From IMG/VR virus record IMGVR_UViG_3300025764_000010, positions 1-37,700 of that record: a stretch of DNA of 37,700 nucleotides; one strand, given 5' to 3'. This document shows positions 12,049 through 35,597 of the stretch, piece after piece. The DNA comes from a virus (taxonomy: Duplodnaviria; Caudoviricetes). How positions within the stretch are numbered: the first letter of the stretch is position 1; every line of letters starts with the position of its first letter. The notes under the pieces were generated by a model that did no database searches, was not told the DNA's origin, and worked only from the letters and a program-made list of their open reading frames with translations. Position numbers and translations under genes: made by a program.

Positions 12049-12099
12049 ATAATGTGTAAAAATTACGGTATGAAGGCAGAAAGCCCAATTGCTTTAGCG

Positions 12100-12477
12100 T
12101 TATTCATTAGCATTAGTCCGAGTGGCTGTATTCCAAGCATCTACTGCACTCCACATCCATAATAAAGGGATCATTAACCAACCTAATATTGGTATCCAGA
12201 GACAAATAGACATCGCAATAATAATAGCGACTCCTTTCTCCTTTTTTCCTACATAAATTAGCCCTAACCCAGGCACTATTGACAAGAAAAAAGCCAAAAA
12301 CGGACTTTTATATGGCATGTCCTTCTCTTTTTTATCGCACGTTGGACAGTTACCGTTTATTAAAAATGACGTGTAAAACTTTTGATAACAACTTTTGCAT
12401 TTTTGTTTAGGCTGTTGTAATCCACATTTTGGACAAGAATCAGTTTCGATTTCGGTGTTACATGCACTACATTTCAC
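12100..12477 (-). CDS. Zinc-ribbon plus TM2-like membrane protein
   Basis: Four CxxC pairs, then KSPFLAFFLSIVPGLGLIYVG (TM2-like) and further hydrophobic helices. Confidence 0.75.
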   Translation of the reverse strand: MKCSACNTEIETDSCPKCGLQQPKQKCKSCYQKFYTSFLINGNCPTCDKKEKDMPYKSPFLAFFLSIVPGLGLIYVGKKEKGVAIIIAMSICLWIPILGWLMIPLLWMWSAVDAWNTATRTNANE

Positions 12478-15429: not shown

Positions 15430-15492
15430 CCAAAGCCTCTTGGCTTCCGGTTTTTCTTCTTTTTTAATTTTACACAGTTCGAACTCCCCGCC

Positions 15493-15534
15493 CTTGTTTC
15501 CATTGTTAACACTGTGAACAATGATATAATATTA
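15493..15534 (+). promoter_or_regulatory. Palindromic operator plus AT box upstream of the putative lysis cassette
   Basis: cttgtttcCATTGTTaacactgtgAACAATGatataatatta; near-identical to 35470-35511. Confidence 0.75.
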
Positions 15535-17730: not shown

Positions 17731-18159
17731 ATGACTGATGTCACAATCGATATCGAGGCCATTGGCTCCGTTATTGCCGGGATAGTATCTATTCTCGTTG
17801 CGATTTTTGGGTACCTCAAAACCAAAGGTTATATTGAGATTTGGAGGTCAAAACTCGCAATTCCAGCCGACGTTTCTATGGAACTCACGAAACATAATGG
17901 GGATGCACTTGCAAAACTTCAACTGTCTGATGAAATTATTGATATTTTACAGACACACGCATCGGATGACACGGGGATGATTGACCCGAGCAAACTTGTT
18001 AAAGTTCTGGATAATTATCAACGCATCCACGAACTAGTGACAATGAAACGTCTAATGACCGTGAACGAACAGAATGAAGTATGCGGGATAGTGTTTCAGA
18101 TTTTGGGGGATCACGGGACCACTGAAGAAACCGGATCTGATTTAAAAATACATAAATGA
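17731..18159 (+). CDS. N-terminal TM protein, holin-like candidate 2
   Basis: AIGSVIAGIVSILVAIFGYL followed by basic residues; context. Confidence 0.55.
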   Translation: MTDVTIDIEAIGSVIAGIVSILVAIFGYLKTKGYIEIWRSKLAIPADVSMELTKHNGDALAKLQLSDEIIDILQTHASDDTGMIDPSKLVKVLDNYQRIHELVTMKRLMTVNEQNEVCGIVFQILGDHGTTEETGSDLKIHK

Positions 18160-18262
18160 ATGGAAATCGAAGGGCGCAAACCCACATGCTTTAGCGGTGG
18201 GATAGCCCGTAAACTTCTCCATAGTAATATTTAAATAGATTAGATACGTATATTAGTATCAT

Positions 18263-18418
18263 ATGGTGAATACACATATAATTAATACAGCTAAGAACAG
18301 AACGTATGTTTATATACCTTCGTTTCTGCGAAAAATGTTCGATATAACAACAGAAAGCAAAGTCGATATAACAACAGATGGAAAAAGCATAATCATAACG
18401 CCAAAGAAAAAGGAATGA
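18263..18418 (+). CDS. AbrB/MazE/SpoVT-like DNA-binding protein (51 aa), not in ORF track
   Basis: MVNTHIINTAKNRTYVYIPSFLRKMFDITTESKVDITTDGKSIIITPKKKE fits the swapped-hairpin pattern (V-x-IP...R...I...V-x-I...DG..IIITP). Ends 4 nt before tnpB. Confidence 0.75.
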   Translation: MVNTHIINTAKNRTYVYIPSFLRKMFDITTESKVDITTDGKSIIITPKKKE

Positions 18419-18422
18419 GAAC

Positions 18423-19691
18423 ATGCGAAAAGGAAACTTGTTTAGAATCTATCCAAACGAAGAGCAAAAACAATTGCTTGAACAACATTTTGGTGCGATT
18501 AGATTCATCTATAACAAGCTCCTGCATACTAAAAGTACAGCGTATAGCCAGTGTAGATGCAGTATTTCTAAAAGAGATTTAGCTGACCATATACAGGTGC
18601 TTAAAGAGTGCTATCCTTGGCTCAACGATATTTCTGCTCATTCTCTTCTTTCGGCAAATAATAATTTAGATGTGGCATATCAACGGTTCTTCAAAGGACT
18701 CGGTGCATACCCAAAAGAACATAAGAAGAAAGACAACCATTTCTCATATCAGTATCCAGATGCTTATCAGATTAATCTCACAACATCGGAAGTTTACTTG
18801 CCCAATATTGGTTGGGTTAAAGTTGTCTTCCATAGAGATTTCTTTAGTCCAGAGTTCATAGAAAAGAATATGGTTGTCACGATTGTTAAGAACCAACGTA
18901 TTCTAAAACATAAAGATAATATTGCTTTTCTCCGTACATTAACAGTTTCACGGACAGCTACCGGAAAGTATCATATCAGTATTCTAACTGAAAATGGACT
19001 TGAACTTCCTGAAACTCAACCATATACTCAGTCCGATGTTCTCGGTATAGACCTTGGATTAAAAACATTCGCGGTTTGTTCAAATGGAGATACTATAGAG
19101 AACCCTAGTTTTCTCCGTGAATCGGAAGAACGGCTTATAATGCTACAGAAACGTGTAAGTAAGAAAGTTAAAGGTTCGAAGAATCGAAAGAAAGCCGTTC
19201 GTAAACTTGCCAAAACGCACGAGAAGATAGCTAACCAACGTAACGATTTTCAACACAACGTTTCATTGCAATTAGTACGCGAAAACCAAGCAATTGCATT
19301 GGAAACTTTGAATATCGATGGCATGAAGCAAAACCATTGTCTAGCGAAGTCAGTTGGAGACGTGGGTTGGTATAGCTTTTGTGTTAAAATAGAATATAAA
19401 GCAAAGTGGCAAGGTAAAACGGTTTTAAAGATAGGACAATGGGAAGCCTCCAGTAAAACTTGTCATGTTTGCAGTTATCATAATTCAGAATTAACACTCG
19501 GAGATAGGGAATGGCTTTGTCCCGAATGCAATACAATGCACGATAGAGACATTAATGCCGCTATCAATATCAAAAAATTCGCAATTAGAGATTATCAAAT
19601 TCCGGTAGGGACTACCGGTAAAGCCTATGGACTTGGAAAAAACGACATAACCGCCAAGAATGAAGTAGGAAGCCTCACAGCTTTAGCGTGA
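18423..19691 (+). CDS. tnpB: RNA-guided endonuclease TnpB
   Basis: N-terminal FRIYPNEEQ...FGAIRFIYN. RuvC residues GIDLG, ALETL and DRDINAA all intact. Zn ribbon CHVC/CPEC. Confidence 0.95.
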   Translation: MRKGNLFRIYPNEEQKQLLEQHFGAIRFIYNKLLHTKSTAYSQCRCSISKRDLADHIQVLKECYPWLNDISAHSLLSANNNLDVAYQRFFKGLGAYPKEHKKKDNHFSYQYPDAYQINLTTSEVYLPNIGWVKVVFHRDFFSPEFIEKNMVVTIVKNQRILKHKDNIAFLRTLTVSRTATGKYHISILTENGLELPETQPYTQSDVLGIDLGLKTFAVCSNGDTIENPSFLRESEERLIMLQKRVSKKVKGSKNRKKAVRKLAKTHEKIANQRNDFQHNVSLQLVRENQAIALETLNIDGMKQNHCLAKSVGDVGWYSFCVKIEYKAKWQGKTVLKIGQWEASSKTCHVCSYHNSELTLGDREWLCPECNTMHDRDINAAINIKKFAIRDYQIPVGTTGKAYGLGKNDITAKNEVGSLTALA

Positions 19692-19720
19692 GGTAGTTCA
19701 CCAACGAAAAGGGACAGATC
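19560..19720 (+). ncRNA. Probable TnpB omegaRNA (reRNA) with guide starting about 19702; 5' boundary uncertain
   Basis: Inferred from the known architecture in which the omegaRNA overlaps the tnpB 3' end and right-end hairpin. Confidence 0.55.
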
Positions 19721-19768
19721 GTGTTAATTCAAAAATAGGAAGTAGCGTAAAACCGCGAGGGGACACAA

Positions 19769-19981
19769 ATGAGTGAAATATCAGAATATGATTTACAGAA
19801 AAGAATCGAGGTCTTAGAAAAACAACTTAAAAGCATAAAATATTGGATATTCGGGGTTGAGGTTGCAGTAGTGATTTATTTTTGCGGCCAGTTGTTGTTT
19901 TTTATCGCTTCAACGTCAGACCAACCGCTTCGATCCGTATACCAATTTCGTGATTATATAATTTACTGGTTCACGCATTGA
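19769..19981 (+). CDS. Small coiled-coil plus TM protein
   Basis: LQKRIEVLEKQL followed by a hydrophobic helix. Confidence 0.6.
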   Translation: MSEISEYDLQKRIEVLEKQLKSIKYWIFGVEVAVVIYFCGQLLFFIASTSDQPLRSVYQFRDYIIYWFTH

Positions 19982-20040
19982 GTGGAACTTTAAAAAATAA
20001 AAAGAGATGTTATATAGTTTAAGATCGATTGGATAAGAAC

Positions 20041-20144
20041 AGATAAGATTGAGAGACTTCGTTTCACAGACGGAGCCTCTAAAGGATGTATAACGAATGC
20101 CTAGTCTATACCATACACCACGAGAATATATAATTTTTGATTGG
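20041..20144 (-). ncRNA. Putative promoter plus hairpin sRNA unit 1
   Basis: Paralogous to 20195-20299. Minus-strand AAAAATTATATA box; stem AGAGGCTCCGT..ACGAAGTCTCT. Confidence 0.5.
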
Positions 20145-20194
20145 GTCAATAATAAAAATACATGTTAAATACTTTGAGATTAATAGAGTAAGAA

Positions 20195-20299
20195 AGATAA
20201 GATTGTGAGGCTCTATCTCGGAAACGGAGCCTCTACAGGAAGGTAATTGACTTGCTTAGATTACACTATGTACTGAACGAATATATAAGTTTTGATTGG
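20195..20299 (-). ncRNA. Putative promoter plus hairpin sRNA unit 2
   Basis: Minus-strand AAAACTTATATA box; stem GAGGCTC..GAGCCTC; pyrimidine-rich tail. Confidence 0.5.
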
Positions 20300-20331
20300 A
20301 TATTAATCTCCTGTTGTAAGGAGGCTATCCG

Positions 20332-35428: not shown

Positions 35429-35469
35429 TGTAACAGCTCCGTTTTTTTATACACGTTGAACCCTGCTCA

Positions 35470-35597
35470 CTTGTTTTCATTGTTCACAGTGTTAACAATC
35501 ATATAATATTAAATGTATCATATAATAGTTGCAAACTCTCCCAAAATACATACATTTTTATCCAAAAACTATACATTTTATATTGTTCACAGTGTTA
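35470..35597 (+). promoter_or_regulatory. Two copies of the palindromic late operator upstream of the portal gene
   Basis: CATTGTTCACAGTGTTAACAAT at 35478 and ATTGTTCACAGTGTTA at 35582. Confidence 0.75.

Follow-up and report, generated by a model that had tools for sequence, protein, structure and literature searches.

The virus record analysed here carries a 1,540-bp IS605-family element (18162-19701) in which a small gene of the AbrB/MazE family stands directly upstream of tnpB. We read it as a non-autonomous IS605 element with a captured, self-repressing AbrB that would damp a shared abrB-tnpB promoter, limiting TnpB and its guide RNA alike, and from comparison of the sequences we give this reading a probability of roughly 0.6. 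How IS605 elements restrain their own nuclease is only now being answered, with the 2026 preprint on the regulator Arc, which binds and represses the tnpB promoter of IS605-family elements (10.64898/2026.09.24.754181). That an IS605 element can carry its own repressor is already in print, and the mobile AbrB-fold version in an archaeal virus is a variant of this idea; the abrB-tnpB locus points to an independent second answer, built on another fold.

The window, meaning the entire stretch of DNA that was analysed, is the whole of a 37.7-kb virus record with terminase and tail-like genes (Pfam). We infer that the host is Methanosarcina or its kin, because the named relatives of the TnpB belong to Methanosarcina, Methanolobus and Methanomethylovorans, because an 88% abrB homolog sits in a Methanosarcinaceae genome, and because the best terminase match (43%) is to a methanogen Caudoviricetes. 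Elsewhere in the window, two 155-nt intergenic repeats (72-78% similarity) lie at 19993-20300, both containing a GC-rich hairpin and a TATA-like box and neither matching Rfam, and two 67-nt stretches upstream of two genes (15468-15534 and 35445-35511) are 79% similar, possibly as a shared viral promoter motif.

The boundaries of the element were set by an empty-site joint and by homologous right ends. In a contig of the sequencing run X5, position 18161 is joined to 19702, with 1540 positions skipped at a depth of 22.8 and no duplicated or common letters at the joint; the flanking X5 contigs are 100% identical to the window, and depth is zero across 18206-19143. Element-free versions of the window virus exist. 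The right ends of homologs terminate at TTCAC (19701), and this, with the joint, places the abrB ORF within the element and the start of the predicted guide at 19702. The sequence-only reading had drawn the element from 18168 to 19720, limits that the X5 joint replaces; its placement of the small ORF inside the element and its guide start were right, and the empty site in related viruses that it had suggested looking for is present in X5 and defines both ends. Another X5 contig, at a depth of 6, has its joint between 18161 and 19706, so that 4 nt of the guide seed are missing from it; it may represent an escape allele or a polymorphism. The alignment of a relative virus (L026) to the window ends at 18114, and no empty site was found there. 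The features of the locus are as follows.

18157-18161, plus strand: target or TAM-side flank TGAAT, outside the element and one base off the TGAT of other copies
18162-18214, plus strand: left end, with a 15-nt leader, the predicted guide tetranucleotide CAAA (18177-18180) and a hairpin (18181-18201) with a TTTA loop
18215-18262, plus strand: junction of left end and abrB cassette, with a predicted archaeal promoter and a candidate operator
18263-18418, plus strand: abrB, 51 aa, an AbrB/MazE swapped-hairpin DNA-binding domain without a C-terminal tail
18423-19691, plus strand: tnpB, 422 aa, with D210/E294/D376, a C4 zinc finger and a 26-aa insertion at about residues 140-170
19597-19701, plus strand: predicted omegaRNA scaffold, overlapping the 3' end of tnpB, from folds and weak Rfam matches
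within the same 19597-19701 stretch, plus strand: predicted guide tetranucleotide GAAG (19669-19672), right-end hairpin (19673-19693) and terminal TCAC (19698-19701), from folds and homologs
19702-19721, plus strand: predicted guide CAACGAAAAGGGACAGATCG, in the right flank outside the element
19951-19974, plus strand: TGAT followed from 19955 by a match, with 1 mismatch, to the predicted guide of a sibling element that sits in the counterpart of this gene in other viruses

The TGA of the TGAAT flank is the stop codon of the ORF at 17731-18159. Both subterminal GCTTTAGC hairpins are present, one per element end, with folding z-scores of -3.5 at the right end and -0.9 at the left; the left-end hairpin, for all its low score, is conserved in loci L037, L152 and L154, and the left end has counterparts in these three and in L161. 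The omegaRNA region matches RAGATH-18 (E 0.0086) and Ref70 (E 0.082) in Rfam, both under the gathering score. The hairpins at both ends and the precise insertion, without target duplication and 3' of a short motif, are those of the IS200/IS605 family, and tnpB is present while tnpA is absent, as in the tnpB-only elements of the IS1341 type. Nothing in the window resembled tnpA at better than E 0.19, and a minus-strand frame (18191-18424), considered as ending in a tnpA remnant, was rejected for want of tnpA similarity. At 12071-12100 of the window, at the 3' end of the minus-strand ORF 12100-12477, there is also what looks like a truncated IS605 left end, TGAAGGCAGAAAGCCCAATTGCTTTAGCG, probably left behind by an earlier insertion.

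The tnpB product scores 304.8 bits against the profile NF040570 (cut-off 100), and the top fold match of its model is PDB 8h1j (E 1.2e-26), ISDra2 TnpB. The D-E-D residues that had been recognized from the letters alone hold up on alignment, D210, E294, D376 and the four zinc-finger cysteines being invariant in 26/26 aligned TnpBs; in its sequence features, namely the RuvC D-E-D, the zinc finger and the predicted right-end omegaRNA, the protein resembles an active TnpB. The insertion remarked upon at the same time is real, amounting to 26 aa relative to ISDra2 TnpB and modelled as a helix plus beta-hairpin in the WED region, but it is nothing special: among 25 homologs picked from 120 listed for the alignment of insertion and catalytic residues, 20 have it at full length, 2 have a shorter form and 3 lack it, which makes it a methanogen-clade trait. 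The notion that it is peculiar to the abrB-bearing element was rejected on the same count. The residues through which ISDra2 TnpB contacts its TAM, K76/F77/Q80 (PMC10097598), align to A72/H73/L76 of the window TnpB. In two viral contigs (L004:3790-3984 and L042:3766-4021), CRISPR-like repeats in 3-4 copies of about 37-39 nt, at a spacing of 71-76, lie directly upstream of a TnpB-like gene, which in L042 also has an IS605-type right end.

The 51-aa ORF had been proposed as AbrB/MazE-like, with an HMM search as a check, and that search bears the assignment out: Pfam PF04014 (MazE_antitoxin) matches at 25.0 bits, narrowly above its gathering score of 24.7 (E 1.9e-5), and TIGR01439 (AbrB) at E 1.8e-4, under the model cut-off. 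The top Foldseek rows for the protein model are AbrB/MazE structures, none of them at E<=0.001, and no matches to abrB were found in plasmid or phage collections or, by sequence, in the PDB. The ORF appears to be under purifying selection, with a dN/dS of 0.02-0.09 against 6/6 close homologs tested, and it is co-directional with tnpB, its stop lying 4 nt ahead, as had been claimed.

In MazE/VapB antitoxins a longer C-terminal tail binds the toxin, whose gene is a constant neighbour. The window protein is the DNA-binding domain only, with about 4 residues in the model after its final strand, and the genes downstream of its homologs vary. Because the toxin-binding tail is missing, it is very unlikely that AbrB acts as an antitoxin by binding TnpB and keeping the guide from engaging its target, the mode proposed, from co-folding, for archaeal RHH/MazE-TnpB modules (PMC10691335). 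The gene order is that of a type II pair and the Pfam match is to MazE, both of which speak for such a role; against it, the homologs with 84-90% identity sit before several unrelated genes, and the window TnpB is mobile and has no RuvC-III D-to-H change. A co-fold of TnpB with two AbrB copies scored 0.21, where the mark is 0.32, and counts neither for nor against such binding. Where the sequence-only reading had spoken of an autoregulated or antitoxin-controlled TnpB, the autoregulated half is the better supported, and the antitoxin half is unlikely for a bare DNA-binding domain whose homologs have no TnpB partner.

The origin of the cassette can be approached through free abrB genes. A metagenome scan gave 14 abrB loci: three window-identical copies (L027-L029), which were not counted as independent, seven close homologs (L030-L036), L037 and three distant viral ones. 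L038/L040, which are on the same contigs as L001/L002, were likewise not counted as independent, and two spurious matches, L003 and L141, were discarded. No tnpB lies near abrB among the 14 loci apart from the window-identical copies. For the close homologs, tnpB follows in 0/6 with downstream DNA (L036 has none) and the left-end hairpin precedes in 0/6 with upstream DNA (L033 has none); the small genes that follow them are varied and unrelated, and lie in virus-like DNA close to terminase or replication-like genes. DNA homology between the window and the free cassettes runs from about 18215-18226 to 18415-18421, ending just before the tnpB ATG. Seen from the other side, no abrB was found next to any of 87 close methanogen tnpB loci (tblastn and two HMMs; 77 with at least 450 nt upstream), and no tnpB beside any of 18 abrB-like matches in 16 of 177 Methanosarcinaceae genomes, the spurious L141 being one of the 18. 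The exact left-end pattern was found neither in viral contigs nor, at 3 mismatches, in these 177 genomes. A DNA search with 18162-18480 matched 10/284 Methanosarcinales genomes (GTDB, one genome per species), and none of the 10 has left end and abrB together.

In the host loci L152 and L161, a similar left end and promoter run straight into tnpB, which starts at the window's abrB start position and is not accompanied by tnpA; abrB therefore likely came to lie between the promoter of the left end and tnpB by insertion. The simplest history, on these comparisons, is likely that a viral promoter-abrB-RBS leader entered ahead of the tnpB of a tnpB-only element, with abrB likely captured from other or related viral elements. 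The earlier suggestion that abrB stands in place of tnpA is not supported, since these nearest left ends have no tnpA. With donor cassette, ancestral left end and empty site side by side, the route by which a regulator became coupled to TnpB is traceable.

Upstream of abrB there are a predicted TATA-like TTTAAATA at 18230-18237 and a candidate operator, GATAC-N8-GTATC, at 18243-18260, a palindrome that is not significant (p 0.95); in the wider family, 5/23 upstream regions have significant palindromes, compared with 1/56 and 0/22 in controls. The 30 nt ahead of the abrB ATG are identical to six free abrB cassettes at 22-28 of 30 positions, and further upstream the agreement falls to 6-8/30, the chance level. 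Unlike these conserved 30 nt, the synonymous sites of abrB differ by 51-74% from those of the free homologs. Such likeness of promoter, together with 84-90% protein identity to free cassettes before terminase and other virus-like genes, also speaks for cross-talk, in which AbrB from the element would act on the near-identical abrB promoters of rival virus or plasmid operons and repress them, and their AbrB would silence tnpB; no further abrB copy was found in the window virus, which likewise favours cross-talk, yet we hold it to be quite unlikely. If abrB represses the shared promoter, the reading that we prefer, its operon position before tnpB means that tnpB is affected too, unless tnpB has a promoter of its own.

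The pair recurs beyond the window. A contig comparison covering 8 of 21 listed runs recovered the abrB sequence in related elements of X8 and X11 (study P8), X18 (P14) and X21 (P15), three studies, none of them the possible source of the window. abrB and tnpB lie together on single contigs in X21 (18342-18571, 2 differences), X11 and X18, and also, at the 31-letter limit, in X8; X14 (P11) has a more distant junction of an abrB end and a tnpB start. The left flank is TGAAT in the window, ...TTAT in X8 and ...GAGTTGAT in X18 (TTGAT flank), and the right flank of X11 and X18 (loose ends at 19701) is TATATAATCTACTGGTTCACG, unlike that of the window. The related abrB-tnpB elements in these other studies have flanks that differ, so abrB and tnpB move together: the element is mobile, and the pair is present at several insertion sites. 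The survey of abrB-tnpB linkage that had been called for thus gave a divided answer, recurrence in these four runs and 0/87 among close tnpB loci.

By sequence comparison the pairing belongs to a narrow clade, which speaks for abrB being a passenger, captured by accident with a usable promoter and ribosome-binding site, its protein irrelevant to tnpB levels or to the success of the element. The cassette also varies or decays: in X18, 194 other letters replace 18217-18367, and in L037:1776-2192 the same left end is followed by another abrB paralog, by part of a zinc-finger gene and by an abrB C-terminus that is near-identical, but by no tnpB; the locus is either a decayed derivative or a mis-assembly. 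The 5' cassette is therefore unstable and the region recombines. Moreover, the abrB dN/dS was computed against free homologs and so reflects mostly their history. On the other side, abrB is retained as an intact 51-codon gene even where the tnpB of the copy has diverged by about 7%, and its operon position would expose tnpB to autorepression unless tnpB has its own promoter; we consider the passenger explanation somewhat unlikely.

For the captured self-repressor, the following course of events is proposed. An ancestor with left end, promoter and tnpB, like L152/L161, would have recombined with the viral leader cassette, abrB taking the start position of tnpB and tnpB becoming the second gene. 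By analogy with IS605 biology, a host TnpA would move the element in trans, with TGAT sites as targets, and TnpB, guided by the omegaRNA of the right end, would cut copies that lack the element, which would help the element to persist and to spread between virus genomes in a co-infected cell. A newly entered cell has no AbrB, and a short burst of TnpB is predicted there, until AbrB dimers build up and shut the promoter. TnpB drive among multicopy replicons has a precedent in plasmids (PMC11870625). A bolder version would make the element a virus-specialised RNA-guided gene drive newly wired into a viral repressor circuit, in which the TnpB burst at infection cuts element-free siblings, the element and resident rivals switch each other off, and the whole is a still-mobile precursor of immobilised AbrB/MazE-TnpB modules. 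Mutual silencing is conceivable there because other methanogen viruses have a nearly identical operator and repressor, but the full scheme is in our view unlikely.

Compared to Arc-bearing IS605 elements, the self-repressed element proposed here shares a small DNA-binding accessory gene within the element, arc-plus-tnpB-only forms included, and a regulator most of whose homologs lie beside unrelated genes. Arc, however, is a ribbon-helix-helix protein, and the elements tested are bacterial, with arc often divergent from tnpB and accompanied by tnpA; the window regulator is an AbrB/MazE swapped hairpin, co-directional and directly upstream of tnpB in an archaeal virus. The main text of that preprint (10.64898/2026.09.24.754181) has 0 mentions of AbrB or MazE. 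The archaeal RHH/MazE-TnpB clade likewise has an AbrB/MazE-family gene directly upstream of tnpB, but it is described as non-mobile and as having its catalytic site rearranged (in RIIIr-4, a RuvC-III D-to-H change), and a toxin-antitoxin role was proposed for it (PMC10691335, Altae-Tran 2023), whereas the window TnpB keeps D376 and its element has both IS ends, an empty site and several flanks. With the Methanosarcinaceae IS1341-type loci L152/L161/L154 and with ISDra2 the element shares hairpin ends, a TCAC right end, tnpB without tnpA and a TGAT-like target; it differs in the extra abrB cassette, the 26-aa WED insertion common to the methanogen clade and the TAM-contact residues. C68 of pSSVx, an archaeal viral AbrB that binds its own promoter region, is also a stand-alone AbrB-fold factor without a C-terminal domain, although it lies outside a transposon and its transcriptional effect was given as unknown in that review (PMC5569661). 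Among the papers listed by searches of freely available main texts, none came up that describes an AbrB-TnpB element mobile in methanogen viruses.

The guide tetranucleotide of IS608 pairs base by base with its target. Under this rule the left-end CAAA predicts a target TGnT, and by eye the same rule fits CAAG/TGAC in L037, AATC/TTAG in L152 and AAAG/TTAC in L154, the last being the pairing of IS608 itself (PMC5027513). The right-flank sequence TATATAATCTACTGGTTCACG has an exact match in the virus L163 after GTGAT, an element-free target of the sibling element's guide. From the CAAA prediction, the flanks of X18 and L163 and the fit of the three other loci, the target motif is therefore probably TGAT, with the window's TGAAT and the TTAT of X8 off-consensus. 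The proposed cutting of element-free siblings accordingly stands in part: such siblings exist, as the X5 empty site and the exact L163 target attest, but cutting of the empty allele at the window's own locus is doubtful, because its flank is TGAAT whereas other copies indicate TGAT. A guide-only search gave seven viral matches, none after TGAT or TGAAT, which were treated as chance rather than as real targets. The locus offers concrete guide-target pairs for TnpB-driven competition between archaeal viruses. Next to the element, a 70-aa membrane-like ORF with its leader (19738-19981) forms a widespread module with variable flanks across several runs and viruses, and both known insertion sites lie around it, within about 250 bp of each other.
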